A stretch of 38,985 nucleotides of DNA from assembly GCA_020057445.1 (NCBI GenBank), contig JAGVFV010000093.1, forward strand, positions 1 through 38,985, in the 5' to 3' direction. This DNA is from an archaeon (GTDB lineage Archaea; Nanobdellota; Nanobdellia; Woesearchaeales; JAHJEM01). The notes beneath the pieces were generated by a model. The model saw nothing but the letters and a program-made list of their open reading frames with translations. It was not told where the DNA came from and searched no databases. The position numbers and the translations under genes are program-made. Positions 6,826 to 36,291 of the stretch are shown here, one piece after another. Every line of letters begins with the position of its first letter. Positions within the stretch are counted from its first letter, which is position 1.

Positions 6826-6826
6826 C

Positions 6827-13733: not shown

Positions 13734-13736
13734 CTC

Positions 13737-14468: not shown

Positions 14469-14558
14469 GCGTCTTAAAAAGCTTGCGCTTTTGACCACAT
14501 GTTCGCATCATGATCCAAGAGATAAACATTTAAAAGATACAATTGATTTTGCTCTCTC

Positions 14559-20907: not shown

Positions 20908-21072
20908 CGAGAGTGCGCATACCGATAAGTCGAACTGGTGGTTCTTGATCATGCTCAAAAATGTTCCATAACTGCGTTCGCCTTTAGGAATTATCTGCGA
21001 TAACGATCTGAATGAACATTTTTGACATTTTATAAACAGCCCAAGGTTTTCCCGTCATAGGGATTTTCTTTT

Positions 21073-21113
21073 GTCCCCGTAGCTTAGCGGTAACGCGGCA
21101 CTGGTCTCAGTGC
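21073..21113 (+). other. tRNA 5'-half-like fragment (acceptor 5' strand, D arm and an anticodon-arm-like hairpin; no T arm or 3' acceptor strand)
   Basis: The first 20 nt (GTCCCCGTAGCTTAGCGGTA, 21073-21092) are identical to the first 20 nt of tRNA-Asn at 21219. They are followed by a GCACT-GGTCTC-AGTGC hairpin with a 6-nt loop, then GC-rich GAAGCGGGCGGG. No CGGGGAC 3' acceptor strand lies downstream. TATA ATTTTATAAA is at 21027-21036. Confidence 0.5.
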
Positions 21114-21218
21114 ACACGGAAGCGGGCGGGATGTTCTTGCTTTTGGCTCGAAGTCCCACGTACTGCCTTGATAAAACAAATTCTTTAAAAACACATGATG
21201 AATTCAAGATGTGTAAGT

Positions 21219-21290
21219 GTCCCCGTAGCTTAGCGGTAGAGCGTGCGGCTGTTAACCGCAAGGTCGCCAGTTCGATCCTGGCCGGGGACG
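21219..21290 (+). tRNA. tRNA-Asn (anticodon GUU)
   Basis: Hand fold:
- acceptor GTCCCCG / CGGGGAC
- D arm GCTT-AGCGGTA-GAGC
- anticodon stem TGCGG / CCGCA with loop CT-GTT-AA
- variable region AGGTC
- T arm GCCAG-TTCGATC-CTGGC
- discriminator G. Confidence 0.9.
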
Positions 21291-21368
21291 CTCTTTTATA
21301 TCTGCATGTAATTTTTTCTCAAGACCTGAGAACTTATATTCAGCGGCCCGGATTCTTTGCATGTTTTC

Positions 21369-21391
21369 TAATACTTACAATGTAAGTATTA
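21369..21391. promoter_or_regulatory. Palindromic operator site 1 (TAATACTTACA-A-TGTAAGTATTA)
   Basis: Perfect 11-bp arms around A21380. The core is ACTTAC-N3-GTAAG. Confidence 0.6.
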
Positions 21392-21442
21392 AATATATAT
21401 TGTAATATTTATAGATAATAACTTCACGTAATAGAAAAATAT

Positions 21443-21465
21443 TAATACTTACAATGTAAGATTAA
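21443..21465. promoter_or_regulatory. Palindromic operator site 2 (TAATACTTACA-A-TGTAAGATTAA)
   Basis: Core ACTTACAATGTAAG at 21447-21460, identical to the site 1 core. Confidence 0.6.
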
Positions 21466-21519
21466 TCTCGCTTTCCTTTGCGCCGCTCAATATTCTCTCG
21501 GACTGCCGGGCACGAAAAC

Positions 21520-21528
21520 TTTATAAAT
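21520..21528 (+). promoter_or_regulatory. TATA box of the surface-protein operon
   Basis: TTTATAAAT preceded by purine-rich CGAAAA (BRE-like), about 65-70 nt upstream of the HTH start codon. Confidence 0.55.
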
Positions 21529-21532
21529 GGAT

Positions 21533-21546
21533 ACTTACGATGTAAG
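21533..21546. promoter_or_regulatory. Palindromic operator site 3 (ACTTACGATGTAAG)
   Basis: It begins 5 nt downstream of the TATA box, between the TATA and the expected transcription start. Confidence 0.6.
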
Positions 21547-21568
21547 AGTCAATCGACTTAAATATCCT

Positions 21569-21582
21569 ACTTACATTGTAAG
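21569..21582. promoter_or_regulatory. Palindromic operator site 4 (ACTTACATTGTAAG)
   Basis: It lies in the predicted 5' leader, 10-13 nt upstream of the GTG/ATG start at 21592/21595. Confidence 0.6.
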
Positions 21583-21594
21583 GTCAGTGGCGTG

Positions 21595-21786
21595 ATGAGA
21601 AAAACAACAGTGCAGTTCCCTACGTACATCTTCAAAGACCGCTCCCTTGCCATCCTCGAAGCGATGGTCGACTACCTTTCTGACAAGGGCTATTCCTGCA
21701 GAGACATCGGGCGCCTTCTCAACAGGGACGAGCGCACCATCTGGACTGTCCAGTCCCGCGTACGGCATAAAAGACATGGCAGATAG
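21595..21786 (+). CDS. Small HTH protein (LuxR / sigma-70 region 4-like), paralog 1
   Basis: 63 aa. SLAILEAMVDYLSDKGYSCRDIGRLLNRDERTIWTVQSRVRHK follows the pattern of LuxR/GerE-type HTHs. It is a paralog of 33435..33659. The TAG stop at 21784-21786 overlaps the giant gene's ATG at 21776. Confidence 0.6.
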   Translation: MRKTTVQFPTYIFKDRSLAILEAMVDYLSDKGYSCRDIGRLLNRDERTIWTVQSRVRHKRHGR

Positions 21787-24700
21787 CGACATCAAGAAAC
21801 TGGAACATCTCAGGGATGAGACGTCACGTGTCCATCATCAGCTCCTTAGGCTCTCTGCAGAAGGGAAAATGACCGATGCAGACTTCTGGCAAAACCATAA
21901 AAAACTCTTCTCCGGGCAGACTGAAGAGGAATACTACCTGCGCATCAATTTCCGCATCCGCTCCCTGAAAACAACGTCAAACGTCCGTCCGACGAGACGC
22001 GCTTTTCCTGCACTCGTCCTCTTCTCCCTTCTTTTCCTCCTCTTTGCCTATTCCCTTTCCTTTGTCTTCGGACCGACAGGATTTGTCATACGCGAGGGAT
22101 ACATCACGAAGACTCTTGACATCAACACGACATACACCGGAACGACCTACATCCCGCTCACGCTCCACAATCTTCGTACCCTCACCATCACGGGCACGCT
22201 GACAGGAGAAGGAGAGATCATCCTTCATTCGGAAAACCAAAGCTACCTCGTCTATTCCTCCAACATCTCCAACGAATCATATGCGCTGGATTATTTCCCA
22301 GACATAGCATTCAATGACACCTGTGATCAGACCTGTTCTCTTCCTGACATCACAACGACCGTCCTTGAGATCAGGCTCCCTTCAAGCACGCTGCATCTCG
22401 ACAAGATCACCTACACCTTTTTCATACGCAACAGGAAACCCTCAGCCCTCGCCCCAGTCCCTTCATTTTCCATGCGGAGCAACCGCACCCTCTCCTCCCT
22501 TGACTATTTCAGCGACCTCGACGAGGATGAGCTGTCCTTCACCCTTACTCCAAATCCGTACATCAGGCTTGCACATACGGGCCACGACCTCATCTTCGCT
22601 AGCACGGGGATCCCTGGCGAATACACCCTCACCCTCACCGTCAGCGACGGCACAGACAACATCACCTCCAATCCCTTTACGGTAACTGTGCTTGACAAGG
22701 AACCCTTCACCATCTCGGAATCAGCGCGGCACCCGCCCATACGCATAGGTGTCCCTGTCATCTGGGAAAAGAACATCACAGCACAAAACAGCCTCAACAC
22801 GACAACAGAGAAACCAGTCACCTTCTCGCTACCCCGAGAGGCGACGAGACTTTCCATCTCCAAGATCTCAGACAACACCACCCTCAACCCTGCAATCCTC
22901 GTCGTCGAGGACAATGCTACAGACATCACCTACTCCTTCACAGACACCTTCTCTCCCGAGACCCTCACTAACTACATCCTCTCCTACGAGACGCCATCGC
23001 CGACACTGACAGAAGAGACGCTCTCTGCCTCGAAAAAAAGGATAACGATATCCTCCACCCTCCCCTATGAGAACATCATCGCACGCACCATCATCACGCC
23101 AGCGGAAAAGAGCACCATCTACCTCTACCACATCGTCAACGGAGAACGACAACCCTTCCCCATCTCAGGATATATTGATCCTGATGGCGATGGTCTGATC
23201 GACATCATCGAATGGACAGTCCCCCACCTCTCAGAACAGGTGTTCGAAGTGGACATCATCATTCTCAACGTGCAAAGCTTCCCGATGATCGGCGGCAACT
23301 GGACAGTGCTCTTCAACACCACAGGCACCGCGGACCTCTCCATCTCAGCAGTCAATGGAACAACGTACAACACGAGCCCGTCAGACCTCACGCCGGTCAT
23401 GCTGCAGTGCAACTCAACAACCCTCAACTACTCTTGGATCGGCAACGACTCGATCACCTATGCCGACTATTCCTGCGACAATGCCACAGGATCATGGATC
23501 GTTCATGTCAACACCGGCGGAAGCCATCACCAAGAGTTCTCCTTCGGGAACGCGACAGTCTTTGCAGACAACTATGCCTCAGGAGCTTTCCGCCTCAATC
23601 TCAATGTTTCAGGTTCAGGGGACAACACGAGCAATGCGAGTTTCTGGGGCGAGGCTGCAAGCGACACATTTGGTTTGGCGGTTAATGGCATCGGCGATTT
23701 CAATAAGGACGGCTATGATGACTTCATGATCTGCGCACCGGCATATTCGGGCAGCAAGGGAAAGGGTTACATCGTCTTTGGAAGGCCGAGCGTCTGGAAC
23801 ATGGATACGAGCGCCTTTTCCACAGGCGACAACAAGACCAACGGCAGCTTCCAGGGAGAAGCGGCAAGTGACAGCGCCTGCAGCAGTTACCAAGGAGGCG
23901 TCGGAGTCGGCGATGTGAACGGCGATGGCTATGCAGACATCGTCATGACTGCAAGCGGGAGAGACAATTCTGGCGCAAACAATGGAGAGGCATACCTCAT
24001 CTTCGGCAACAATTCAGGTTGGGGATACAACATCAGCCTTGCCAATGCGAACGCAAGCTACTATGGCGAACAGGGAAGCGGATCCAGCGGGCTCAATTTC
24101 GCAGCAGGTCTTGGCGATGTGAACGGCGACGGGTATGACGACTTTGCTATCGGTGACTATGCCACGAAGGCCAGCAATGCCTCTGCCGCCGGAAAGGTCT
24201 ATGTCTTCTTCGGCAGGGCGGCTTCCTGGCAGACAGACCAGAACATCACCATGGCAGCAAATGCCACGTTCCTCGGCTACAACATCAGCGACAATCTCGG
24301 AGCCCGCCTCGATGGCGTCGGCGATGTGAACAATGACGGGTTTGACGACTTCCTCTTGTCGGCGTCAACCGCCAAAGTCGGGGCAAGCGTCGTCGGAAAA
24401 CTCTATCTGGTCTACGGGCGGAACACCACTTGGAGCAGGGACATCAATGTGACAGGGACGAGCGACAATACCACGAACGCGAGCTTCTTTGGGCTTGCCA
24501 GCGACAATATGGGTAATCCCAAGTGGATAGGAGATGTGAACGGAGACACGCGTCCGGACCTTGGCATGAGCGCGTCCGGACGGAACAGCAGCAAAGGAGA
24601 GACCTATTTCTGGCTCGGCGGAACAGCATTCACATTAGGCATGTATCCCAATGGAAATACAGTGAACAATGTCTCCAATGTCTCTGTCTGGGGCGAAGGC

Positions 24701-27700
24701 GCAAATGATTATTCAGGATGGCAATTCTCTGGAGCAGGAGACATGAACAACGACGGCTATGACGATATCATCATTGGGGCATATTACCGATCGCAAGGGC
24801 CTACAAACAACGGGAAGGTCCATATTGTCTTTGGAAGGAACAGCGGATTTTCCATGAACATGACGAGCGCAAGCAATGCGAGCTTCATAGGAACGAACGC
24901 CTCAGACTATCTAGGGATAACAGTGGGGTACGCAGGCGATGTGAACGGCGACCTCTTTGATGACGTCATTGTCGGCGCGCCCTATGTGGACAGCAACGGA
25001 GCGACCAATGGCGGAGAGGCATACCTCATCTTCGGACAGGGGTCAGGAGATCCGATCCTGAACATCTCCAGCCTTACCGTGTTTTCGGACAGCAGCTACA
25101 TCAATGACATCACCAACAGCACATTCTATCTTTCCAACCCCCAGAAGCTCTACATCCAGGCAACAGCAGTGGGAGGAAGCAATCTGCGCGTGGAGACAGT
25201 CATGATCCTTGCCAATTCTTCAGACCACAGCCTTCCTGTGAAGGTCAAGCTTAGGGAGACATCGACAGGTTCGAACAATTACCGCGGTTTCATCAAGGTC
25301 CGCACAGGAGCGACAAGCAAGCGCTTCAACACTGTCCAGGCGACAAACCTCTCCACGCTCTACTTCTACAACTACACCAACCAGGCAAAGTATTGGACAG
25401 TGCGTGCTGATTATCGGCAGGATCCCTGCAGCCCGAACAGCACGTGGGTGGTCACAGACACGGTAAACTGCACAGGAAAGAGCATCATCAACGCCACGTC
25501 TCTCGTCATAGGGCCGACCGGCCATCTCGTCACCAACTATACCAATGTCAACATCACGGGAAACGTCACCATCAATGCGAGCGGAAGCTGGGATGCGTTC
25601 AACAGCAAGGGATCCATATGGGTCGGTGGCAACATAACAGTAAATGGCTATGCCAACTTCACGAACGTCACCTTACGCATGAACGTCACGTGCGACGGGT
25701 GCGGAGGCATCAACGTCACCTCGACAGGGACGCTTGTCATCAATGACTCAACCAACATCACCTACGGAGAGAACGTCAACAACAACTATTTCTTTACTGT
25801 CGAACAGGGAGCAAACCTCACCATCACGAACAGCAATATCGAATTCGCAGGATGGAACGATCCTGGCACAGGGGAATTGACCCCCTCGTACGGACTCATG
25901 GTCATGACCAACAATAGTGTCTTTCGGAACGTCACCTTCCAGAACAACTATTACGACATCTTCCTCTGGTATGCCAATAATACGCTCATAGATAACTGCA
26001 GCATGACTGCTGCAAGAGGGGGATGGTCACCAGTCATCTACACCACTACAGGAAACAACTTCACGAACATGAGAGTGACAACGATCGCGGGCGCGTGGAT
26101 AGACTATAGTGCCAACATGACCTTTGAGAATGTCAGCTTCAGCGGAGGAAGCGACATCGCGCTTCAATTGACTGGATCTTCAGACAATACTTTTAGGAAT
26201 TTCCATGCAAGCTCCTCTGCTGATGCGCCAGTCTTTCTTCAGGTCAGCTCAAACCGCAATATCTTCCTCAACTCCACCATCAGCTCTGCGAGCGGAAGGG
26301 CAGTTGCGCTTAGTTCAAGCAACCTCACTGTCTTCTCCTCCACCATCTTCTCATCTGTAGCATCAGGCAGCCTTGCAAAAGACATCAGTTTTCCGTCGAG
26401 CCAAAAACACGTGGTTGAGGCGCGTAACAGCACCATCAACTCAACCAAGATCGACACTGGCTCAGGGAGCCGTGTCATCATCAGGTCGTTTGTCCGTGCC
26501 TATGTCGCCGACACGCAAGGCAATGCCGTCAGCGGAGTGAATGTCACGACATTGAACCTGACATCGCAAGAGGAAAACTACAGCTACACAGACATACAAG
26601 GCAATTCCGCCTTTGTAAACCTCACCCAGCTCTTTGTCAGCGGAACAACAGACACAAGGACAGACTATAACAATTACACATTCATCCTTTCCAAGAACAA
26701 CTACTTTTCCGAGACAGTCTCGTATAACATCACCAATGGATCGCAATACAACGTGACGCTCTACAGCTACTGCGACTTCAATGGATCAGACATGCACGTG
26801 GTAGAGGACCTGACCTGCTGGAACAGGACAGGAAGCGCAGGCCTTATCAACATCAGCCCTGGAGTGAACCTCACCTTCATCAACGTCACGCTCAACATCA
26901 CTGGAAACGTCTATATTCCGCAAAACGCTACCTTTGCCATCATCAACTCAAGCCCGGCATGGACCGCTTTCCAGGGCTCTGCCGGAAATCCGACGGCTGT
27001 TCGCGTCAGGATGCAAGGCAACATGTCAGTGAACGGCACGCTCAACATCACGAACACAGCTCTTGGGTTCAACGGCAGCTGCAACACGTGCGCAGGACTG
27101 AACATCACAGGGAACATCACCATCAACGGAAGCAAGATCACGCGCGCAGAAAGCGCGACCAACTACTTCTTCACTGTCTACTCGCCAAGCAACCTCACCA
27201 TACAGAGCTCCCAGATAGAGTACTGTGGCTGGGGAGCGATGACGCCAGTCAGCGATCCGAAAGGAGGGCTCCTCATCAAATCCAACAATTCCATCATCAT
27301 CAACACGACCTTCATCAACAACTCAGTCGACATACGATTCAGCATGGCAAACAACTCCTACATCGTCAACAACACATTCGAATCGCCGTCAAACGGCTAC
27401 AACATGGTCCTTGGCACATCCAGCAGGTACAACAACATCACCAACAACACCTTCAACGGGACAAAGACAGGGATATATTTCTCCGGATCTGACAATAACT
27501 CCTTCACCAACAACTACATCAATGTCTCTGAAAATGGGATATACCTTGCATCATCTCACAACGAGACCATCAAGCACAATTTCATAGCGGCACTCGGGTC
27601 AGGACTGCGCTTATTCACGAGCAGCGACAACTGGATCTACGATGTCAACATCACCGACGGATCAGAATATTACGGTATCCTCATTGTTGGCCATCGCAAC

Positions 27701-30700
27701 CTCTTCCAATATGTGAATGTGCACTGGTATTCTTCAAACTCGAGCGCGGTCACCTTCGCCAATATGGACGCGAACAACGAATTCTGGCGCTCCAGCCTCA
27801 TCAATGAAGGCTATGACTCACTGACTTTCTTTCGTGGCAATGCCAACCTCTTCACAGATTGCTACTTTGAATCTGCTTCAGGACGGTATGACGTCGAAGG
27901 CACGTATACTGCTTCTGCAAGCTTCAATACCATCCTCCTCAACGCCAGTCTTACTACACGAAAGGTCCTTGGACAGCCAGGAGACAAGGTCTTTGGAAAG
28001 CACCGCTTCAATGTCAAGGTCAGCGACTATGCGGGCGTTGTCCAAGGGGCAAACGTCTCCATCATAAATGGCTCCTCAACCCTTGAGAACTGGAGCCTAT
28101 CCGACGCATCAGGCCTTTCCCCCCTCCTCAACCTCAGCTCATTTTATGCAATCTTCCTCAATTCTAATCCCTCCTGGGAGTCCAACTTCACTATCTTTGT
28201 CAACAAGACAGGATACCACAACAAATCAGTCTCAGTCAACATCAGCCAAGGCTACCCCTACAACATCACCATCAACGTCCTCCCGACAGTCGCGGCCCAG
28301 GCAGCAAGCCCAAGCCCCCAAGGATATGGGAATAACGTCACCATCGGGGTGAACTTCTCAGATTCCGACGGCATAAACGACGTGTCAGCCGCAAAAGTCG
28401 AGATCGACCCGCCAGGAAGTCCTGCTGCTGAAAACTTCACCATGACTGAGATCGGCACAGTTGCCGCAACAGACAGGTTCCAGTACAACTACACCGGCTG
28501 GCACCATGGCAACTACTCCTACAAGTTCTGGATATACGACGCATCAACAGACTGGATAGACACAGCCGCGTCCACCTTCGAAGTCAATGCCAACATCACG
28601 ATCAATGTGCGCACGATAAAAGACACCTACTCCCAGATGGAGGTCGTCTACCTCACCGACCCGCCAGACGAGATATTCATCCCGCCAGCAATTCCGGCAT
28701 CGCGGCTGCCGGCATTGCAGGACAGCGTCGAACAACAGGCCATCGCCGAAAATGAGCCAGCCCAAAAAGCCAGAAACATGCAGCGTGGACTAGTTGATAA
28801 AAACAAGGACACAGGACCTCCCTTTATTACCAACGCGTTCGCCAACCCTCCGGACGTCTACCCTGGAGACAACATGACTATTTCTGCCGACATCATCGAC
28901 CCTTACGGCATCATCTCTGCATCCGCAATCATGCCCCACGAGAAAGGAGTGGACAACATATCGCTCAAGCTCACAAAAGGGACAACGTACAACGGCACGT
29001 GGCAGGTTGTCTGGCCTGTCCACGACACGATAAAGAAAGCATACACAACCACAATAACAGCGACGAACACGCAAGGAAAGAGCGCGACGTTTCCACTTTC
29101 CTGGACAGACGTCACGTACGTCTGGATTGACCAGGATGTGGAGAATGTGTCAAGCTACAGCAGGTCAGGAGCGTTATACTGCACTAATCCTGCAAACGGA
29201 TATGATGAGGGATGGGGAACAATGACAAATTCGGGATCAAATGTCTGCTATATCTTCATCAACTACACCATACCCCGCTATGTGACGAGCATAAAGGATG
29301 AACTCAAAGCAGACGGTTCCAATTACGCTGTAGTCTATGACTGTTATAACCATTCAAGTGGTGCTTGGATAAATATCGGACAGTCTACAACAGCGGAGAC
29401 CATCAATATCACACCTCCTGCTGCATGCCTCAACGGCACCAACCTCTCCATGCGCTTCGTTTCCGTAGGTGATCTGGGAGAACCCGGAGGACAATTTTTC
29501 GAAGACAAGGCATGGTGGTACAAGAAGGTCGGACCGTACTATGACAACTTCATCAACGGCACCAACACGACAAACATCGGTATCATCGGAGCCGCGGACA
29601 CGAGCACTGCACTCATCCTCCAGACCAACAACAACCAGAGCAAGATCGCCTGGGAATCAAACGTCACCATCAACAGCACCTGGAACTTCGACGACGTCAT
29701 CACCTTCAACGACTCCTACCTCTACGTCAACACCAACTTCTACCCGAACCTGAACGCTAAGGCGACAGTCACCATCTCAAACCTCTACTATAGAGACTTC
29801 ATCCTCTACAAGGACGGCAGCCTTTGCACAGACTGCCTCATCATCTCGAACACGGGGAACGGCACCATCACCTTCAATGTCAGCGGATTCTCCAACTACA
29901 CCTGGGCAGAAGGAAACCAGTCCAAGATCACGAACAACGGAACGACAGCGGTGAACGTCTCCCTCCTCATCAAGATCCAATATTACAACAGCACAGACTC
30001 CATCTGGTATGACGAGGCGCTCATCGTCAACATCACCAACGTCAGCATAGCGGCAGGAGGATCAGTGAAGCTCGACGACTTCTTCAACGGGTTTGTCAAC
30101 ACCTCTGACGACCTCATCCACGGGTCAGGATGGTACAGGGTGAACGTGAGCCTCACGAACGCCTCATCCTTCATGCTCACCAACTACAGCACAGGAGCGA
30201 TCTCTAGCGTGTACAACTTCAGCTACCTGAACAACTCAGTCCCCATTGTCCAATACGTCCAGCTGCTTCCCCCGTGGGCGCAGACCAACGATTCGCTGAC
30301 GATCTACGCCAACTGCACTGATGCAGACGTCTCTGATTCAGTCACAGCGTCTTACACTTTCTACAAGAACGGCACCAACACGAGTTCAGGGACAGCATCG
30401 ATCACGAAGAGCACGAATGCGACTGTCGCGACGCTCTCCGACTCTTCGACGACGAAGAGCGACATCTGGACAGCAAGCGTCAGCTGCAAGGACAGCTACA
30501 ACTCATCAGCCTACACAAACTCATCCACAGTCACCATCCAGAACAGCGTGCCACAGACAAACCTTGTCCTCCTCCTCCCGACGAACCCCAACACGACCGC
30601 GTACCTCAACTGCACCTTTGCCATCGCCGACAATGACACGACAGACCGCCTGACTGTCTTCTACAGATGGTACAACAACAGCGAGCAATATTCCAACGGA

Positions 30701-31927
30701 ACGCTCGTCTACAGCCTCACGAACAACTACACACTTCTTTCCAACGCAACCACGTCCAAAGGAGACACGTGGACCTGCTCCATCAACGCCACCGACGATA
30801 TCGGTGTCAATAATTTCACCAACTCATCTTCTGTCACCATCGCAAATACCATTCCCACGGTTCCCGCTCTCGAGGTCCCGACGAGCGAGAATTTCACAGT
30901 CCATAACCGATCCACCACCTTCAACTGGTCCAACAGCACTGATATGGATGGCGACGCCATCACCTACGACATAGACATCTCCTCAGATACTGCGTGCGCA
31001 GGAGGAGGATTCACAGACACCGGCCTGACAGTATCTCAATATACCTACGCCAGCGAGCTCTGCACCCAGGACGAGACAAGCCTCCTCTACAACTGGACTG
31101 TTCGCGCCTGCGACCCGACTGGCTGCAGCGCCTGGACAACGCCATGGAACTTCTCCATCGAGCCTTGGATCGTCATCGCCTTCGCCACAGACAGCATTGA
31201 CTTTGGCACGTGGCAGGTGAGCGACGAGAACACCTGGAATGATACGTCAGACAACCACCCTCCTCCCTTTGTCATAGAAAACAACGGCAATGTCTACTCC
31301 AACCTCACCAATGTCACAGCGAACGCAAGCCTCTGGAGGTCCCCGCTCGCAGGCCTTGGCACCCACTACTTCCAGATCAAGGTCGACGAGACCGCGGAAT
31401 CGACATCCTTTGACTGGGGGACAAGCCAGACCACCTACATGAACCTCACTTCGACCAACCAATCCCTCATCAACAGGCTCGGCTATAATCCCCTAGCAAA
31501 CAGCGCACAGCTCGACATCAACATCACGCTACCCCAGAACGAGCCGGCAGGAAACAAGACAGCGGCGATCATCCTCTGGTTCGAACAGACGCCATCGACA
31601 GCCATTCCATCCTGTGATGGATATTATGCACTAGGATACTGCTGGTACCAAGACAACACTACAGAAACAAGCTGCGACACCATCTGCCTAGACCACGGAG
31701 GCTGCGTCAATGAGAATTGGAACGATAACAATGAATGTTCTGTCTGCGCTCATTTCAATCAGGAAAATGAAGGATGCTTTGAGGATGCCTCTTCGTATAC
31801 ACCGCTCTTATTCAGGGACGGAGTCCCAAATGGTGTTTGTAATTATAGAGACTCAGGAACAAGCCAAGACTGTGCAAGCACAGGTCCAGATGAATTTGCC
31901 TATAGGATGTGCGCATGCGAAACGTAG
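21776..31927 (+). CDS. Giant N-terminally anchored surface protein (3,383 aa): cadherin-like domain, 7 FG-GAP repeats, two right-handed beta-helix modules, Ig-like repeats and a Cys-rich C-terminal domain
   Basis: The frame is uninterrupted. ATG at 21776 is chosen because the upstream extension to 21647 overlaps the HTH gene out of frame. Domains seen:
- about 85 aa of cytoplasmic N-terminus, then TM AFPALVLFSLLFLLFAYSLSFVF (about 22000-22070)
- cadherin/dystroglycan-like domain LDYFSDLDEDELSFTL...TLTVSDGTDN
- seven GD(V/F/M)NxDGxxD FG-GAP blades (about 23630-25050)
- PbH1-like beta-helix repeats (about 25440-26470 and 26770-27960)
- 12 Cys in the last approximately 105 aa
- very dense N-X-S/T sequons throughout. 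Confidence 0.9.
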   Translation: MADSDIKKLEHLRDETSRVHHQLLRLSAEGKMTDADFWQNHKKLFSGQTEEEYYLRINFRIRSLKTTSNVRPTRRAFPALVLFSLLFLLFAYSLSFVFGPTGFVIREGYITKTLDINTTYTGTTYIPLTLHNLRTLTITGTLTGEGEIILHSENQSYLVYSSNISNESYALDYFPDIAFNDTCDQTCSLPDITTTVLEIRLPSSTLHLDKITYTFFIRNRKPSALAPVPSFSMRSNRTLSSLDYFSDLDEDELSFTLTPNPYIRLAHTGHDLIFASTGIPGEYTLTLTVSDGTDNITSNPFTVTVLDKEPFTISESARHPPIRIGVPVIWEKNITAQNSLNTTTEKPVTFSLPREATRLSISKISDNTTLNPAILVVEDNATDITYSFTDTFSPETLTNYILSYETPSPTLTEETLSASKKRITISSTLPYENIIARTIITPAEKSTIYLYHIVNGERQPFPISGYIDPDGDGLIDIIEWTVPHLSEQVFEVDIIILNVQSFPMIGGNWTVLFNTTGTADLSISAVNGTTYNTSPSDLTPVMLQCNSTTLNYSWIGNDSITYADYSCDNATGSWIVHVNTGGSHHQEFSFGNATVFADNYASGAFRLNLNVSGSGDNTSNASFWGEAASDTFGLAVNGIGDFNKDGYDDFMICAPAYSGSKGKGYIVFGRPSVWNMDTSAFSTGDNKTNGSFQGEAASDSACSSYQGGVGVGDVNGDGYADIVMTASGRDNSGANNGEAYLIFGNNSGWGYNISLANANASYYGEQGSGSSGLNFAAGLGDVNGDGYDDFAIGDYATKASNASAAGKVYVFFGRAASWQTDQNITMAANATFLGYNISDNLGARLDGVGDVNNDGFDDFLLSASTAKVGASVVGKLYLVYGRNTTWSRDINVTGTSDNTTNASFFGLASDNMGNPKWIGDVNGDTRPDLGMSASGRNSSKGETYFWLGGTAFTLGMYPNGNTVNNVSNVSVWGEGANDYSGWQFSGAGDMNNDGYDDIIIGAYYRSQGPTNNGKVHIVFGRNSGFSMNMTSASNASFIGTNASDYLGITVGYAGDVNGDLFDDVIVGAPYVDSNGATNGGEAYLIFGQGSGDPILNISSLTVFSDSSYINDITNSTFYLSNPQKLYIQATAVGGSNLRVETVMILANSSDHSLPVKVKLRETSTGSNNYRGFIKVRTGATSKRFNTVQATNLSTLYFYNYTNQAKYWTVRADYRQDPCSPNSTWVVTDTVNCTGKSIINATSLVIGPTGHLVTNYTNVNITGNVTINASGSWDAFNSKGSIWVGGNITVNGYANFTNVTLRMNVTCDGCGGINVTSTGTLVINDSTNITYGENVNNNYFFTVEQGANLTITNSNIEFAGWNDPGTGELTPSYGLMVMTNNSVFRNVTFQNNYYDIFLWYANNTLIDNCSMTAARGGWSPVIYTTTGNNFTNMRVTTIAGAWIDYSANMTFENVSFSGGSDIALQLTGSSDNTFRNFHASSSADAPVFLQVSSNRNIFLNSTISSASGRAVALSSSNLTVFSSTIFSSVASGSLAKDISFPSSQKHVVEARNSTINSTKIDTGSGSRVIIRSFVRAYVADTQGNAVSGVNVTTLNLTSQEENYSYTDIQGNSAFVNLTQLFVSGTTDTRTDYNNYTFILSKNNYFSETVSYNITNGSQYNVTLYSYCDFNGSDMHVVEDLTCWNRTGSAGLINISPGVNLTFINVTLNITGNVYIPQNATFAIINSSPAWTAFQGSAGNPTAVRVRMQGNMSVNGTLNITNTALGFNGSCNTCAGLNITGNITINGSKITRAESATNYFFTVYSPSNLTIQSSQIEYCGWGAMTPVSDPKGGLLIKSNNSIIINTTFINNSVDIRFSMANNSYIVNNTFESPSNGYNMVLGTSSRYNNITNNTFNGTKTGIYFSGSDNNSFTNNYINVSENGIYLASSHNETIKHNFIAALGSGLRLFTSSDNWIYDVNITDGSEYYGILIVGHRNLFQYVNVHWYSSNSSAVTFANMDANNEFWRSSLINEGYDSLTFFRGNANLFTDCYFESASGRYDVEGTYTASASFNTILLNASLTTRKVLGQPGDKVFGKHRFNVKVSDYAGVVQGANVSIINGSSTLENWSLSDASGLSPLLNLSSFYAIFLNSNPSWESNFTIFVNKTGYHNKSVSVNISQGYPYNITINVLPTVAAQAASPSPQGYGNNVTIGVNFSDSDGINDVSAAKVEIDPPGSPAAENFTMTEIGTVAATDRFQYNYTGWHHGNYSYKFWIYDASTDWIDTAASTFEVNANITINVRTIKDTYSQMEVVYLTDPPDEIFIPPAIPASRLPALQDSVEQQAIAENEPAQKARNMQRGLVDKNKDTGPPFITNAFANPPDVYPGDNMTISADIIDPYGIISASAIMPHEKGVDNISLKLTKGTTYNGTWQVVWPVHDTIKKAYTTTITATNTQGKSATFPLSWTDVTYVWIDQDVENVSSYSRSGALYCTNPANGYDEGWGTMTNSGSNVCYIFINYTIPRYVTSIKDELKADGSNYAVVYDCYNHSSGAWINIGQSTTAETINITPPAACLNGTNLSMRFVSVGDLGEPGGQFFEDKAWWYKKVGPYYDNFINGTNTTNIGIIGAADTSTALILQTNNNQSKIAWESNVTINSTWNFDDVITFNDSYLYVNTNFYPNLNAKATVTISNLYYRDFILYKDGSLCTDCLIISNTGNGTITFNVSGFSNYTWAEGNQSKITNNGTTAVNVSLLIKIQYYNSTDSIWYDEALIVNITNVSIAAGGSVKLDDFFNGFVNTSDDLIHGSGWYRVNVSLTNASSFMLTNYSTGAISSVYNFSYLNNSVPIVQYVQLLPPWAQTNDSLTIYANCTDADVSDSVTASYTFYKNGTNTSSGTASITKSTNATVATLSDSSTTKSDIWTASVSCKDSYNSSAYTNSSTVTIQNSVPQTNLVLLLPTNPNTTAYLNCTFAIADNDTTDRLTVFYRWYNNSEQYSNGTLVYSLTNNYTLLSNATTSKGDTWTCSINATDDIGVNNFTNSSSVTIANTIPTVPALEVPTSENFTVHNRSTTFNWSNSTDMDGDAITYDIDISSDTACAGGGFTDTGLTVSQYTYASELCTQDETSLLYNWTVRACDPTGCSAWTTPWNFSIEPWIVIAFATDSIDFGTWQVSDENTWNDTSDNHPPPFVIENNGNVYSNLTNVTANASLWRSPLAGLGTHYFQIKVDETAESTSFDWGTSQTTYMNLTSTNQSLINRLGYNPLANSAQLDINITLPQNEPAGNKTAAIILWFEQTPSTAIPSCDGYYALGYCWYQDNTTETSCDTICLDHGGCVNENWNDNNECSVCAHFNQENEGCFEDASSYTPLLFRDGVPNGVCNYRDSGTSQDCASTGPDEFAYRMCACET

Positions 31928-31941
31928 AAAATGACAAGACA

Positions 31942-33438
31942 ATGAAAAGACAAAAAATGATGGAAAGGGAATACAGGAAGTGCAGAGAAAACACCCTGCA
32001 TTCCTTCGGACTCCTCTTCCTGTCTCTAATACTATTCCTGATTATTTCCTCAGAGGCGATGGCGCTCGGTATCGCCCCATCGCGAAAAGTCGTCAACTAC
32101 GAGAGCGAATTCACAGTCCAGGCGACGCTCGTGAACAACGACGGACGGCAGATGACACTCTTCATCCTCCCGCAGGGAGAATTCGCACCCTATGTCCTGC
32201 TCGACAAGAACATCATCAAGATCACAGCAGAAGAAGGGGAAGTGAAGTTCACCTACACAGTCAAGGTGCCGAAGAACGCAACCACGCCCGGACAGAATCT
32301 TGTCCGTGTCGCATTCATAGAACTCCCTCCTGACTTCAAGAATCCACTCGTGACACCAGAGGGGCAAGTAGTGGATGTCGGAGAGAAGAGCGCGATCAGC
32401 GCGACCACAGCGATCGTCCAGCAGGTGGTTATCAACGTCCCCTTCCCAGATATCTATGTCGACGGCAGGCTCTACATCACCGGCGAGAGGGCAGGAGAGC
32501 CAGTCGCCTTCTCTGTCAGCCTCTTCAACAGGGGAAGCAAAGACACTGCAGTGGAAGGATATGTGCTTGTCAAAGGGCCGACAAACGAAGAGCTCGCCCA
32601 CATATCCCTTGGAAAAACGACACTCTCTCCAGCCCAAGAATCACGCATCGTAGGCGCCTGGACACCAGAGCACACAGGAGAATATTACGCAGAGGCCTAC
32701 ATCACCTACGGAGAGCGGACATTCACCCTCAAAGAGCAATTCACCGTCGGCGCTCCCTTCATCTCCATCGACACCCTGCGGATCGGCGCATTCCGCCTCG
32801 GCACGATCGCGAAATTCGACGTCGAACTCTCCAGCAAATGGAACAAGATGTTAACAGACATCGAAGGAGAGATGACAGTACTAAACAACAAAGGAGGCAT
32901 CGTCTCGTCATTTGAGACCACACGAAAGGACCTTCCCCCCTACGGCTCAGGCACTGTCACAGGATACTGGGACACCGCCGGAGTCACTGTCGGCGAATAC
33001 GACGTGAACGTCAAGATCAACGCAGAAGGAAAGACAAGCCAAAAGACCTTCCCGACAGTAGTCTCCATAGACTCCATAGAAGTCAAAGAAGGACAAGCAG
33101 CGATAGGACAGGTCATCGGCACAAAGAAAGGAGGCTCGACCACAAGTCTCCTCATCATCCTCGTCATAGTCCTCATCATCCTCAACATAGGAATCCTCCT
33201 CTTCTTCAGGAAAATCAAAGGCGCCCTCGGCAAGCCTCCTTCGCCACCTCAAACCCCACGGACTCCTCCACCCCCCTCCTCAACCAGGCAAGCCCCTCCG
33301 CCTGCAACCAGGCAACCATCCTCCTCGCCTGCTTCGCGACCAGCAACTCCCACCCAACCTGCACCCCGCCCTGCACCATCCCAAACTCCCACTCCACGAC
33401 AAGCAGCCCCTCCAAGTGAAACCATGGTGAACCAGTGA
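31942..33438 (+). CDS. Secreted multi-Ig (CARDB-like) protein with a C-terminal TM anchor and a Pro-rich cytoplasmic tail
   Basis: Signal peptide FGLLFLSLILFLIISSEAMA, then CARDB-like segments (for example AGEPVAFSVSLFNRGSKDTAVEGYVLV). TM is LLIILVIVLIILNIGILLFF, followed by RKIKG and an approximately 65-aa P/T/S/Q-rich tail. ATG at 31942 lies 15 nt after the giant gene's stop; in-frame alternatives are 31909, 31915 and 31957. Confidence 0.75.
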   Translation: MKRQKMMEREYRKCRENTLHSFGLLFLSLILFLIISSEAMALGIAPSRKVVNYESEFTVQATLVNNDGRQMTLFILPQGEFAPYVLLDKNIIKITAEEGEVKFTYTVKVPKNATTPGQNLVRVAFIELPPDFKNPLVTPEGQVVDVGEKSAISATTAIVQQVVINVPFPDIYVDGRLYITGERAGEPVAFSVSLFNRGSKDTAVEGYVLVKGPTNEELAHISLGKTTLSPAQESRIVGAWTPEHTGEYYAEAYITYGERTFTLKEQFTVGAPFISIDTLRIGAFRLGTIAKFDVELSSKWNKMLTDIEGEMTVLNNKGGIVSSFETTRKDLPPYGSGTVTGYWDTAGVTVGEYDVNVKINAEGKTSQKTFPTVVSIDSIEVKEGQAAIGQVIGTKKGGSTTSLLIILVIVLIILNIGILLFFRKIKGALGKPPSPPQTPRTPPPPSSTRQAPPPATRQPSSSPASRPATPTQPAPRPAPSQTPTPRQAAPPSETMVNQ

Positions 33439-33659
33439 GAGAACACAAGAGACCGGACTATGTACTCATCCCAGATACTGTATTTAGGGATCGGTCAGTC
33501 TCAGTCATGGAATCCATGGTCAGATACCTCAAGGAAGATCGGGGATTTTCCTACCATGACATAGGAAAGCTCCTCAACAGGGACGAGAGGACTGTCTGGA
33601 CAGTCTACTCCCGCTGCCAAAAGAAGGCTGTACTTACTGAAAAAGGGAAAAATATTTAA
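33435..33659 (+). CDS. Small HTH protein (LuxR / sigma-70 region 4-like), paralog 2
   Basis: SVSVMESMVRYLKEDRGFSYHDIGKLLNRDERTVWTVYSRCQKK aligns with paralog 1; the shared block is LLNRDERT(I/V)WTV. The GTG start forms a GTGA overlap with the upstream stop (33435-33438). Confidence 0.6.
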   Translation: MREHKRPDYVLIPDTVFRDRSVSVMESMVRYLKEDRGFSYHDIGKLLNRDERTVWTVYSRCQKKAVLTEKGKNI

Positions 33660-33694
33660 ATATTGCACATCAAAAAACCAAATAGGTGTGAGCA

Positions 33695-33979
33695 ATGGAC
33701 ACTATGCAATCTTCAGAATCAACTCAACAATCAACAACCCCACCACACGACATCTCGAGGCGGACGATCGTCATCCTCCTCATCCTCGTCACCCTCCTTT
33801 CTGCACTCAGCACGCTCTCAGTACTCAACGAGATCAACAAGGTCAAGCTCATGCCTACGCAGAACAACCAGGTGGCGACAGGAAAAGTACAGCTGACCAT
33901 ACTTGATCCAAACGCTCCGCAGACACAACCTCCAAACATCGCCACAGGCAAAGTCGTACTCGAAATAAAAGACAGGTGA
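33695..33979 (+). CDS. 94-aa anchored protein with two copies of an ATGKV-x-L-x-I strand motif
   Basis: Polar N-terminus, TM IVILLILVTLLSALSTLSVL, then QVATGKVQLTILD and NIATGKVVLEIKD. AGGTG Shine-Dalgarno at about 33684. Confidence 0.6.
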   Translation: MDTMQSSESTQQSTTPPHDISRRTIVILLILVTLLSALSTLSVLNEINKVKLMPTQNNQVATGKVQLTILDPNAPQTQPPNIATGKVVLEIKDR

Positions 33980-33985
33980 CACCCC

Positions 33986-34660
33986 ATGGACATCTCCAAC
34001 AAGACACTCGCAATATTCCTCGTCGCGGCAATCGTGCTCTCGCTTGGAGGAACAATGCTCTCCCTCAATTCGCTCAATAAGATAGGGCCGACGGGGATGG
34101 CATCAACACAGATAGGTCGTGTCAATCTTACTATCCTCTCAAATTCCGATATCACTCTTGGGCATCAACAGATAGAATTCGGGATAGGTGTTGTGAATAC
34201 GTCTAGTGGTTGTAAATATGCCAATCTGACGCAAAACGCGACGAATGGTTTCTTTGGTAATTGTTGGGTGAACCAAGCGCAGATGCCCAACAGCGTTGTT
34301 GCGAATGAGACTAATTTTTGGTCTATCCAGAATGACGGAAACGTCAACATCACGCTCACTGCGACGAGCACACAGAAGAATTGGAGCAACTTCATCGGCA
34401 ACTGCACTGTTACAGATGAACAGAACTGGTATCGCTTTGCCGCATTCAATAACGCGACAGAGTCGGGGATCTCATGCCAGGGCATGAACACGACAGGCTG
34501 GACAAACTTCACCGGAGCCCAACAAGATGTTTGCAACAGCCTCGACTATGTTGATACCCGTGATACCATCGCGGTCGTACTCAATCTCTCCATCTGTCAG
34601 TCAAACTATCCGACAGGATACAAGAACGACAACGTCACGTTCCAATCAGCAGCAGCATGA
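33986..34660 (+). CDS. Secreted Cys-rich, heavily sequon-laden protein (224 aa), paralog A
   Basis: N-terminal hydrophobic signal/anchor LAIFLVAAIVLSLGGTML. The mature part has 6 Cys and 13 N-X-S/T sequons (my count). AGGTGA Shine-Dalgarno overlaps the upstream stop. It is a paralog of 37505..38194. Confidence 0.75.
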   Translation: MDISNKTLAIFLVAAIVLSLGGTMLSLNSLNKIGPTGMASTQIGRVNLTILSNSDITLGHQQIEFGIGVVNTSSGCKYANLTQNATNGFFGNCWVNQAQMPNSVVANETNFWSIQNDGNVNITLTATSTQKNWSNFIGNCTVTDEQNWYRFAAFNNATESGISCQGMNTTGWTNFTGAQQDVCNSLDYVDTRDTIAVVLNLSICQSNYPTGYKNDNVTFQSAAA

Positions 34661-35859
34661 AACCTTTTCTCCTTTTTTTGATTTTCATTGCTTGCATCCC
34701 TACGATAACAGCCATGGGGATACAGGGAGTTGTCCTCAAAGACACATTATTCTTCCAGCCAGGAATGGAACGGCACTATGACCTCACCTTTTCCACCAAC
34801 TCTGGGTTCACAGAGGATTATGTCCTCTATGCACATATGCTGCTTGGAGAACAATCCCCTGTCGATCTCACTTCGTATGTCACCATCGATAAATATTATG
34901 TCAAAGAAGTCCCAACAGGATCTGTCATCCCCTTCACCGTCGACCTGAAACTTCCCGAAACGATTGACGTCCCAGGCATCCATGAAATCCGCGCAGGAGC
35001 AAGGGAAACCGGCACCGTAGGTGGTGGAGGGATGGGAGCGCTTACCGCAGCTGAACTGCGCATAATCGTCATTGTCCTCTTCCCTGGCGAATATGGTGTT
35101 GGAGGATTCATCACCACCAGCGTGAATGAAAACCAGACACTCCCCTTCAAATTCACCATCAGCAACTATGGCACGTCGATCTTGCAGGCAAAAGGGCGGG
35201 TAGGAATATATAAAGAAGGAGAATCCCTTCTTCTCGGCGTCGCACGGTCAGATACTTATCAGGTCAACTCAACAGGCAGCAGGGAATTCTTTGCCTTCTT
35301 CAACACGACAGGACTAAGTCCGGGCGACTACTATGCCCTTGGCACCCTGATATGGAGCAAGAATAACGAAACCCAATACAATGCGACTTTCAGCATAGGA
35401 TCCAAAAGCGCGTTCATCGTCGACTATACCAAAGAAGCATATGTAGACACGGTCAACAAGATGGAATTCATCGTCCGCTCACTTTGGAACAACAAAATCA
35501 ACAACATCTATGTCGATGCCTTCCTTCTCGATAAAAATAATAAGACAATCGCATCCTTCCCTACCACGTCCAAACAGCTCAGCCCCTGGCAGACAGATAC
35601 GGTCCTTGGATACCTAGACACGAAAAATGTTCCCGAGGGAAATTACACACTGCGCATGCGTCTCAATTACGACACCAGCCAAACCACATTCGAAGGCAAT
35701 ATCTCCATCCTTCCAAAGCCTCCGGCAGAAACACCGCAGCCCGAAGTTAAGAAAGAACACGCATCACTCCCCCGCTATGTCAGTATCATGTTCATCATCA
35801 TAGGCGCACTTCTTATCATGCTCCTCATTCTCGTTTTCATCATCATAAAAAGGAGATGA
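34657..35859 (+). CDS. Secreted multi-Ig (CARDB-like) protein with a C-terminal TM anchor, paralog of 31942..33438
   Basis: Signal peptide MKPFLLFLIFIACIPTITAMG, CARDB-like segment NQTLPFKFTISNYGTSILQAKGRVGIY, C-terminal VSIMFIIIGALLIMLLILVFIIIKRR. ATGA start/stop overlap at 34657-34660. Confidence 0.75.
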   Translation: MKPFLLFLIFIACIPTITAMGIQGVVLKDTLFFQPGMERHYDLTFSTNSGFTEDYVLYAHMLLGEQSPVDLTSYVTIDKYYVKEVPTGSVIPFTVDLKLPETIDVPGIHEIRAGARETGTVGGGGMGALTAAELRIIVIVLFPGEYGVGGFITTSVNENQTLPFKFTISNYGTSILQAKGRVGIYKEGESLLLGVARSDTYQVNSTGSREFFAFFNTTGLSPGDYYALGTLIWSKNNETQYNATFSIGSKSAFIVDYTKEAYVDTVNKMEFIVRSLWNNKINNIYVDAFLLDKNNKTIASFPTTSKQLSPWQTDTVLGYLDTKNVPEGNYTLRMRLNYDTSQTTFEGNISILPKPPAETPQPEVKKEHASLPRYVSIMFIIIGALLIMLLILVFIIIKRR

Positions 35860-35862
35860 ACA

Positions 35863-36291
35863 ATGAAGAAAAGACAAGCACTCCTCTTCCTTATCGCCTT
35901 TTTTTTTCTTATCTCTGCAGTCACTTCAATACTCTATGGCATATTCGCCCGGCCATTCGAGAAAATAACAATCCAAGTCAATGGTACCATATCAGGAGGC
36001 AATACATTAGGATTTAATGTTGCTACAGATGCGCTTGCCTTTGGCCACGTCCCCAGACATGCAACAGGCAAACGCTATCTTATTCTTACGAACGGGCTGT
36101 CTCAACCAATTACCGTCAAGATCTATGACACTGGCAACATCTCCCCCTACCTCACCGTCAACGAAAGCATTATCCGTCTTCCACCGCAATCCGAGCACAA
36201 CATCTCCATACTCCTGACACCGACGGACTCGGCAGCAGGGTATTACGAAGGATTCATCACAGCAGCATACTACCGTCGCTTCATCTCCTGA
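35863..36291 (+). CDS. N-terminally anchored single Ig-like (PapD/ASH/MSP-like pattern) domain protein, 142 aa
   Basis: TM ALLFLIAFFFLISAVTSILYGIF, then LAFGHVPRHATGKRYLILTNGLSQPITVKIY...LTVNESIIRLPPQSEHNISILLTP, the beta-sandwich pattern seen in ASH/PapD-like domains. The start is 3 nt after the upstream stop, with AGGAGA upstream. Confidence 0.6.
   Translation: MKKRQALLFLIAFFFLISAVTSILYGIFARPFEKITIQVNGTISGGNTLGFNVATDALAFGHVPRHATGKRYLILTNGLSQPITVKIYDTGNISPYLTVNESIIRLPPQSEHNISILLTPTDSAAGYYEGFITAAYYRRFIS

Follow-up and report, generated by a model that had tools for sequence, protein, structure and literature searches.

In the WxL clusters of Firmicutes, a small and a large WxL protein share a C-terminal domain and are accompanied by an Ig-Ig-transmembrane protein, with strand insertion predicted between them (PMC10599100). 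Filaments assembled by donor-strand complementation also exist in archaea (PMC9715654, PMC12518558). Here, we describe an operon of surface proteins on contig JAGVFV010000093.1 of an archaeon of the Woesearchaeales (assembly GCA_020057445.1); the whole stretch analysed, 38,985 nucleotides, is called the window below. Judged from its sequences, the cluster is best described as resembling strand-complementation surface systems without belonging to a known one; for each of the families considered, the sequence features that define it are lacking. Our favoured reading, held at slightly below even probability, is that the locus encodes a helix-turn-helix (HTH)-regulated, lineage-specific (Woesearchaeota/Nanoarchaeota, DPANN) surface adhesion complex or fibre that would be assembled by β-strand complementation. 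Searches of Pfam, NCBIfam, PHROGs and PDB sequences placed no part of it in a characterised system, and literature searches that combined DPANN with adhesins, surface proteins or donor strand found no description of the cluster. The first-pass annotation, made from the sequence alone, had called this an uncharacterised surface system; that description holds in that the locus is coherent and matches no characterised system, but its parts do have relatives in kind among donor-strand pilins, PapD-like/ASH domains and the immunoglobulin-like (Ig-like) domains of WxLIP.

Gene coordinates, start and stop codons and junctions were re-derived from the sequence, giving an operon of eight same-strand genes at 21592-36291, every product of which is annotated just as "hypothetical protein":

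21592-21786, + strand: HTH1, 64 aa, a single-domain helix-turn-helix protein with a GTG start and an alternative in-frame ATG at 21595
21776-31927, + strand: the giant protein, 3,383 aa, N-terminally anchored and adhesin-like
31942-33438, + strand: c1 (Ig/TM-1), 498 aa, with a signal peptide, Ig-like domains, a C-terminal transmembrane (TM) helix and a Pro-rich cytoplasmic tail
33435-33659, + strand: HTH2, 74 aa, a paralogue of HTH1
33695-33979, + strand: a (p94), with a DISRRT motif, a transmembrane helix and two "TGKVxLxI" strand motifs with a Pro-rich linker between them
33986-34660, + strand: b (Cys224), with an N-terminal transmembrane helix, linker motifs and a β-sandwich with a conserved Cys pair
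34657-35859, + strand: c2 (Ig/TM-2), 400 aa, with a signal peptide, three Ig-like β-sandwich domains and a C-terminal transmembrane helix
35863-36291, + strand: d, 142 aa, with an N-terminal transmembrane helix and a single ASH/PapD-like Ig domain

The re-derived junctions confirmed the tight packing proposed in the first-pass annotation, with intergenic spacings in gene order of -11, +14, -4 (GTGA), +35, +6, -4 (ATGA) and +3 nt; the gap before c1, previously given as 15 nt, is 14 nt. Shine-Dalgarno sites of the AGGTG type lie where they had been placed, with AGGTG 8 nt before the ATG of a and, before b, an AGGTGA that includes the stop codon of a. The earlier claim that every product other than the two HTH proteins has a membrane or signal segment also held: hydrophobicity identified such segments in all six (giant, aa 75-100; c1 and c2, one N-terminal and one C-terminal each; a, aa ~20-47; b, aa ~3-28; d, aa 4-29), and helices in AlphaFold2 (AF2) models agree. 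As had likewise been suggested, c1 and c2 are paralogues (BLASTP E 8e-18, 23% identity). HTH1 and HTH2 proved to be paralogues of each other too (54% identity, E 3e-22).

Related loci were collected by looking up homologues of b and by scanning one genome per GTDB species (32 loci), which yielded 35 non-redundant loci. Family hidden Markov models (HMMs) were built and mapped on all open reading frames (ORFs) of the 36 sources, that is, these loci and the window. Because the genome scan used a single narrow peptide pattern, [IV]SNKTLA[IML][FL][LI], the resulting phylogenetic distribution is a lower bound. Homologues were obtained only from metagenome-assembled genomes labelled Nanoarchaeota, Woesearchaeota or archaeon, in keeping with the DPANN-like origin suggested earlier, plus some third-party annotation (TPA) assemblies labelled "uncultured Methanosarcinales" (labels taken as given).

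Conservation of gene order, which the first-pass annotation had proposed to check in related genomes, proved to be strong, contrary to the refuting case named there, in which homologues would never be syntenic. Genes a, b (one or more), c and d are contiguous on one strand in 24 of the 36 Woesearchaeota/Nanoarchaeota sources, and the other 12 are nearly all cut by contig ends. Many loci contain multiple b paralogues, their number being variable, and the giant-c1 pair is optional. Of 28 c genes followed by d, 27 are c2-like, whereas each of the 13 c genes located upstream of the a-b core has a better score with c1 than with c2; c1 and c2 are two positional orthologue groups. The conserved unit, as delimited by these comparisons, is a four-gene core a-b-c2-d (33695-36291), to which the giant-c1 pair and the HTH genes are frequent but optional additions. 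The eight-gene unit at 21369-36291 delineated in the first-pass annotation is a real operon, but the locus continues past 36291 and its conserved core is only a-b-c2-d. That the products are co-transcribed yet functionally independent surface (glyco)proteins, forming no specific complex, is a very improbable explanation. Such independence would agree with the domain matches, every one of which is to an Ig-like or adhesin fold of generic type; against it stand the order of the four small genes, strictly conserved at 25-35% protein identity, the orthology of c1 and c2 by position, the N-terminal motif shared by a and b, and the occurrence of the b domain in both small and giant proteins.

The N-terminus of b, MDISNKTLAxFLVAAIVxSxAGTxISLNKL, is near-invariant in 25 homologues that are otherwise ~30% identical, and is followed by a linker in which xTG[YFM]A precedes a G-x-V-x-L-x-I strand whose Gly is invariant (G44; alignment A1). 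The AF2 model of b, with a predicted local distance difference test (pLDDT) score of 80.7, consists of a helix at residues 5-31, a low-confidence linker at 33-55 that holds the conserved strand, and a nine-strand β-sandwich; in this monomer model the GxVxLxI strand is unstructured (pLDDT 47-57). Among the top 20 Foldseek matches of b in the PDB, 18 are donor-strand-complemented subunits. The matches include FimA, FimG, PapE, CsuA/B and CsuE, the cannula protein CanA (9h8b, probability 0.98, TM-score 0.57), the Hyper2 tube (9bab, probability 0.99, TM-score 0.58) and the Sulfolobus thread subunit (7pnb, E 0.14). Protein a, encoded directly upstream of b in nearly all loci, is without a globular domain. 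In 34 aligned sequences it has a DISxKT motif, a conserved transmembrane helix and two GxVxLxI-type strands split by a Pro-rich linker; a and b share a near-invariant N-terminus (DISxKT plus transmembrane helix) and the strand motif, which occurs twice in a. Two other assignments of b were tried and set aside: it is not claimed as an ASH domain, since its hhalign comparison with d fell short of significance (28%), and a viral or tail-fibre origin was dropped after tblastn against phage genomes found nothing.

The closest fold neighbours of b thus belong to chaperone-usher pili (type 1, P and archaic Csu), albeit at weak scores (E 0.02-0.3 for FimA, CsuA/B, PapE, FimG and CsuE). The likeness extends to the two-domain adhesins FimH and CsuE, which carry a C-terminal pilin-like domain as the giant does, to the partners of PapD-like fold encoded alongside (d and domain 1 of c), and to a strand motif of alternating hydrophobic residues. 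The present locus differs in having no usher, no outer membrane and membrane-anchored partners. The usher family was absent from the window and from the recurrent neighbours of the 36 loci, and no two-domain soluble PapD chaperone was recognised, as there was no Pfam match to PapD_N or PapD_C and d is a single domain with a transmembrane anchor.

Similarities to the TasA-superfamily filaments of archaea (the Saci_0406 threads, Pyrobaculum ABP and the Pyrodictium cannulae CanA/CanX) were also seen, CanA and Hyper2 having the highest Foldseek probabilities of all matches of b. Those filaments are built from Sec-dependent, glycosylated β-sandwich subunits with an N-terminal strand, and the Saci_0405 cap, a small companion that gives only a donor strand, is reminiscent of a. 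They differ from the present proteins in several respects: there is no sequence relationship, alignment A1 having zero matches at E <= 10 to PDB sequences including TasA, AbpA, CanA and Saci_0406, and b has no Pfam or NCBIfam match to Peptidase_M73/TasA, AbpA, CanX or thread profiles; their subunits have ordinary cleaved signal peptides; they come with neither c/d-type partners nor a giant adhesin; and they are known mainly from Thermoproteota, with none found described in DPANN.

These comparisons also bring up a true donor-strand-exchange pilus, which we consider rather unlikely. In such a pilus, b would be cleaved and polymerised head-to-tail through its N-terminal strand, the giant would be a tip adhesin joined like FimH, a would serve as an anchored base or terminator giving the last strand or strands, and c and d would be anchored PapD-like chaperones or a platform. 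The dominance of donor-strand pilins in the Foldseek list points in this direction, as does an N-terminal strand that is conserved yet disordered in the monomer model. A G-x-A motif (within xTG[YFM]A) precedes that strand, the window has a gene for an archaeal type I signal peptidase (SPase I), many loci hold multiple b paralogues, the giant ends in a b-like domain, d and domain 1 of c have an ASH/PapD-like fold, and archaeal precedents exist (PMC9715654, PMC12518558). The structural scores are, however, as weak for this pilus as for the favoured complex, the putative cleavage site lies unusually far from the hydrophobic core, the transmembrane helix is far more conserved than would be expected of a disposable signal peptide, Pfam matches to PapD_N, PapD_C or usher are lacking, and the known archaeal donor-strand-complemented filaments need no partners like c and d.

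The same conserved N-terminus admits a different explanation, namely that a and b diverged from type IV pilin-like proteins and form the filament core with their helix, with a PilB/PilC-type machine encoded elsewhere; we regard this as improbable. A near-invariant N-terminal hydrophobic helix in front of a variable β-rich domain is a hallmark of type IV pilins and, as with archaeal type IV pilins, several paralogues occur per genome. A short charged leader (MDISNK) precedes the helix, its length being variable in family a, and in several archaea pilin genes are unlinked from their machinery. The N-termini of a and b, however, read M(D/E)ISNKTLA... or ...DISxKT... and have no [KR][GA] class III cleavage motif, and no match to Class_IIIsignal, Pilin_N or arch_flag_Nterm was found in Pfam/NCBIfam at E <= 0.1, which bears out the earlier statement that they are not class III signals. 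In the model, the helix of b is separated by ~24 low-confidence residues from the globular domain and is not packed on it, and neither a type IV pilin nor an archaellin is among the top 50 Foldseek matches. As to machinery, the window contains no pilus ATPase, PilC, prepilin peptidase (A24) or sortase, in line with the first-pass annotation. PilB/FlaI (T2SSE) ATPases and PilC/FlaJ platforms are likewise absent within ±10 kb of the 35 related loci, where clustering of all neighbouring ORFs revealed no recurrent ATPase, platform protein, peptidase or sortase family, nor any further recurrent family. Known type IV pilus loci, moreover, have no counterpart of c or d.

The b domain is not confined to small proteins. 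Within the giant, the following regions were distinguished:

23900-25027, + strand: FG-GAP repeat region (integrin-alpha-like propeller), aa ~709-1084
25910-27700, + strand: two parallel β-helix (Beta_helix/NosD) modules, aa 1379-1531 and 1827-1975
31139-31573, + strand: b-like domain, aa 3122-3266, homologous to the globular domain of b
31595-31924, + strand: Cys-rich tail of ~110 aa, read from the translation, with no family match

The FG-GAP assignment has a Pfam E of 4.7e-33 over the whole protein (6 stretches), and the β-helices were matched by Beta_helix (6e-11 and 1.7e-14) and NosD (1.6e-14); long β-rich stretches of the giant match no family. Alignment A1 aligned with the giant's C-terminus at an hhalign probability of 95.5% (E 1.4e-8, 160 columns), and the b-family HMM gave a domain E of 3.5e-12. 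In 7 other loci, too, large proteins carry a b-like domain at their very C-terminal end, and 7 of the 13 upstream c1-like genes directly follow an ORF that ends in such a domain.

For c2, the AF2 model (pLDDT 83.8) comprises three Ig-like sandwiches and a C-terminal transmembrane helix. Its Foldseek matches were generic tandem-Ig structures (677), led by ASH-repeat ciliary proteins and including the WxLIP structures 9i1y and 9i25 (9i1y_A: E 1.8e-9, TM-score 0.37, highest sequence identity 15%). At the sequence level, c2 matched Pfam WxLIP_HBD (E 2e-5) with a score of 25.0 bits, which falls short of the 28.9-bit cut-off; when 10 members of the c family were sampled, 5 matched this model, one of them above the cut-off (P0050, 31.3 bits). 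No match to WxLIP_PGBD was found in c, and the c profile against PDB sequences retrieved neither a WxLIP nor any informative solved structure; the only trace of an usher family was a match in c2 (TcfC E-set, E 0.035). Word-seeded searches with c2 alone or with a 12-sequence profile gave only 4 proteins each, as transmembrane and low-complexity words swamped the candidates, and an exhaustive profile search was used instead; it recovered 3,642 clusters (at 50% identity) at E <= 1e-3 and 1,719 at E <= 1e-30. Protein d is, on profile evidence, the sole cluster protein in a named superfamily, ASH/PapD-like. It matches Pfam ASH at 29.9 bits, above the cut-off of 27, its family members match ASH, PapD-like PF14874, Cep192_D4 and HYDIN Ig, and its profile (A4) matches Hydin ASH repeats at 1.7e-9. 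It is also homologous to domain 1 of c (hhalign 95.7%), and 3 of 22 d members weakly matched WxLIP_PGBD.

In layout, the locus resembles the WxL/Csc clusters, in which a small one-domain protein is encoded with a large adhesin that carries the same domain C-terminally after host-binding domains (PMC10599100). A tandem Ig-like protein with a C-terminal transmembrane helix is encoded alongside in both (WxLIP, that is DUF916-DUF3324-TM, and here c), a resemblance of layout only, and c members repeatedly match WxLIP_HBD, as the c2 model does 9i1y and 9i25. The differences are nonetheless substantial. Protein b is not a WxL domain, since neither b nor the giant has a Pfam WxL match at E <= 0.1; no WxL chain is among the top 50 Foldseek matches of b, and the b profile has no PDB sequence match, the WxL chain of 9i25 included. 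Archaea lack peptidoglycan as a binding target, c is built of three Ig domains against two in WxLIP, and b has a conserved N-terminal transmembrane helix. Proteins a and d are without counterpart, the small LPXTG protein of WxL clusters being loosely analogous.

The architecture of c (signal peptide, β-sandwich domains, C-terminal transmembrane helix) would also suit an S-layer-type envelope, with c as a SlaB-like membrane stalk and b and the large proteins as a glycosylated canopy. An S-layer protein (7ptp) is among the c2 Foldseek matches, the c family is very abundant, and b and the giant are rich in sequons. We nevertheless hold this explanation to be quite improbable: a dedicated HTH with four putative operators points to expression that is regulated and not constitutive, b paralogues differ in number among loci, the giant-c1 pair is optional, and the giant is built of adhesin-type FG-GAP and β-helix domains with no match to a lattice-forming family.

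The regulatory region upstream of the operon contains the following elements:

21369-21583, no strand assigned: palindrome array, an 18-nt unit present four times and including the palindrome ACTTACAWTGTAAG, at 21373, 21447, 21533 and 21569
21513-21527, + strand: BRE (B recognition element)/TATA-like element, cgaaaac TTTATAAA, with the TATA-like box at 21520-27, just upstream of operator 3

The palindrome TACTTACAWTGTAAGTA thus occurs in four copies upstream of HTH1, the first 18-nt unit lying at the start coordinate given in the first-pass annotation (21369) and sites 3 and 4 lying between the TATA-like box and the HTH1 start codon. When the window was scanned with up to 3 mismatches (<=3), 10 strand matches were found, 8 of which are the four sites and 2 unrelated matches elsewhere; shuffled windows gave 1.5 +/- 1.3, and none of 100 shuffles reached 10. 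The palindrome TACTTACAATGTAAGTA also occurs in L005 (three times) and L038 (twice), immediately beside a divergently oriented HTH gene that heads the a-b-c-d genes; the rest of the 445 kb of related loci contains no copy (~0.4 matches expected). Because b in these two genomes is only ~28-30% identical to that of the window, the HTH-operator pair appears to be an old, dedicated regulatory unit. HTH1 matches Pfam HTH_38 and HTH_23, both below threshold; the HTH family HMM has matches adjoining the cluster in 6 other loci, and an HTH2 homologue lies at the equivalent position in L001. The array is accordingly a putative operator of the HTH proteins. HTH1 and HTH2 would bind the four 17-bp palindromes and autoregulate the operon, most simply by repression, a mode suggested by the operator position only. 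A promoter function of the TATA-like element is suggested by its resemblance to the archaeal TATA consensus. The operon may be transcribed from one promoter, as claimed in the first-pass annotation, which would agree with this TATA-like box and with the absence of a terminator-like site on the + strand inside the operon. Scans for intrinsic terminators and sigma-70 promoters are uninformative for an archaeon.

Upstream of this region, Rfam and ARAGORN identified only tRNA-Asn(GTT) at 21219-21291. A 26-nt copy (92% identical) of its 5′ end lies 146 nt upstream of the real gene (21072-21097 versus 21218-21243). A second tRNA at this site was rejected, the copy being a partial duplicate and both programs calling only the downstream gene; it could be an integration or recombination remnant or a decayed tRNA. 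No evidence was found for the operon as an integrated element, and the flanking genes (Hel308 upstream, trmA downstream) are common to the related loci L004 and L001.

Exposure of the products was assessed from N-x-S/T sequons, which number 5.6 per 100 aa in the giant (188 sequons) and 6.2 in b. Proteins c2 and d have 2-3 per 100 aa, and c1 and a only 0-0.2 (0 in a), compared with a mean of 0.36 in fifteen housekeeping (cytoplasmic) proteins. This distribution fits an exposed, outermost position of the giant and b, and a buried or membrane-proximal one of a and c1.

On the favoured reading of a strand-complemented adhesion complex, all structural products are predicted to be inserted into or through the membrane. 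The b domain, a probably glycosylated β-sandwich of pilin-like fold, would act as a common docking module that exists both as small proteins (b and a second copy, b2, described below) and as the C-terminal domain of the giant FG-GAP/β-helix adhesin, to which it is homologous. Each b-bearing protein is paired with an adjacent gene for a membrane-anchored Ig-like partner, the giant with c1 and small b with c2 and d; these partners may bind the b-bearing proteins and hold them at the membrane. The amphipathic GxVxLxI strands, one in the linker of b and two in a, would complete in trans the sheets of neighbouring b, c or d, by contacts like those of chaperone-usher pili, of archaeal threads and cannulae, and of the predicted WxLIP-WxL pair. 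The outcome would be a membrane-tethered complex or short fibre on which the 3,383-aa adhesin, with its heavy glycosylation, is displayed to the outside. Plausible targets of attachment are a host cell or a surface; contact with a host is a conjecture drawn only from the adhesin-type domains (FG-GAP, β-helix), the high density of N-glycosylation sequons and the DPANN lifestyle.

Several observations weigh against this assembly. Foldseek matches of b include none at E <= 1e-3, the best being at 0.02-0.04 with TM-scores of 0.4-0.58, and the b profile (A1) retrieved nothing from PDB sequences even at E 10. Neither Pfam nor NCBIfam assigned a or b to a family, and PHROGs likewise gave nothing; the WxLIP-like matches of c sit among 677 generic tandem-Ig matches and are mostly under the Pfam threshold. 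A transmembrane helix as near-invariant as that of a and b does not look like an ordinary signal peptide that is cleaved off, and the sole G-x-A site of b lies ~12 residues past the hydrophobic core, which makes release of b from the membrane uncertain. The giant, finally, has its own N-terminal anchor, and a docking role of its C-terminal domain does not obviously require one. Both a tethered complex and a polymer are compatible with these sequences, in that the conserved helix argues for membrane retention of b, and the G-x-A motif and the signal peptidase allow cleavage. It is conceivable, if unlikely, that DPANN archaea (Woesearchaeota/Nanoarchaeota) possess a donor-strand-assembled fibre of their own, which would be the host-attachment organelle of these episymbionts. 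The giant would be its tip adhesin, joined through a pilin-like C-terminal domain; c and d, as PapD-like Ig proteins tethered to the membrane, and a, as a mini-protein of just two donor strands on a transmembrane helix, would build and anchor it; such a fibre may share ancestry with the WxL/WxLIP clusters of Firmicutes.

The locus extends past 36291, beyond a convergent tRNA U5-methyltransferase gene at 36281-37408 that has the same position in L001, with two further genes:

37505-38194, + strand: b2, the second b copy, 229 aa, 74% identical to b
38227-38985 (contig end), + strand: start of an E-family surface protein with a transmembrane helix, a "TGQA..GKVSLCI" strand motif and Big_9/cadherin-like repeats

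The latter gene was identified by the E-family HMM (1e-54) and by Pfam Big_9 (9.3e-10). An E gene follows d in 21 of the 36 sources and is in many of them followed by two ribbon-helix-helix (RHH) mini-genes and a Big_9-type protein of ~1,250-1,400 aa. E-family proteins span 650-1,400 aa and combine an N-terminal transmembrane helix, a b-like "TGQA..GKVSLCI" strand, cadherin/Big_9 repeats and Cys-rich modules; the three full-length members read, from L003, L004 and L006, also have a second transmembrane helix and, in the cytoplasm, a helical tail. E-family proteins may thus be further components of this apparatus. The RHH-like genes, of ~44 aa (MxNINIxIPDxLHKxLK...), stand 2-3 in tandem downstream of the cluster in eight loci (L001, L003, L004, L006, L008, L012, L014 and L023), in most of which a Big_9-type surface protein of ~1,220-1,280 aa follows directly (e.g. 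L004, 17658-17923 and 17920 onward), and the two form a second conserved regulator-plus-surface-protein unit in these genomes. In one sub-lineage (L017, L024, L025, L027, L029, L032, L033 and L034), a conserved protein of ~187 aa, without an obvious membrane segment, is inserted between d and E (e.g. L025, 4098-4658). A distant relative of the cluster in L003 has a Bro-N domain protein (6305-7141), of a usually phage-associated type, between a giant surface protein of more than 7,000 aa and the b/c genes.

The remainder of the window is archaeal by content, encoding TFS, NMD3, a DnaG-type Toprim protein, a Hel308-like helicase, TrmB and an archaeal signal peptidase I. The last of these (13737-14498, - strand) scored 78 bits with NCBIfam TIGR02228, where the cut-off is 51.9, and secondarily matched SipW, but was missed entirely by Pfam; an equally long ORF overlapping it on the opposite strand (13719-14477, +) is probably spurious. 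A HerA/FtsK-type ATPase at the contig start (176-1483, - strand; DUF87, with weak Zot/VirB4/CedD-like matches) is the sole ATPase in the window; it is not PilB-type and lies 20 kb from the operon. Two genes on the - strand are of unusual architecture: 5695-6825 encodes a nucleoside 2-deoxyribosyltransferase domain fused to a thymidylate kinase (376 aa), and 6827-8515 a 562-aa protein with a ThyX domain confined to its first ~240 residues.

Little is known of the way in which DPANN archaea, tiny and probably host-dependent cells, recognise their hosts and stay attached to them, and there is no cultured model for Woesearchaeota. The cluster provides a defined and widespread candidate set: the giant adhesin with its predicted glycosylation, the b domain as a pilin-like docking module, the Ig proteins as membrane anchors, and a regulator together with its putative operator; the c family alone comprises ~3,600 clusters at 50% identity. 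Donor-strand assembly is so far represented by bacterial chaperone-usher pili, TasA, and Thermoproteota and haloarchaeal filaments. If strand complementation holds for the present locus, this mode of assembly would be extended to a new archaeal superphylum, and the WxL systems of Gram-positive bacteria would seem to be linked to it, or parallel to it, at a deep level. Should the products form a donor-strand fibre proper to DPANN, it would be an archaeal counterpart of the chaperone-usher logic without an outer membrane.

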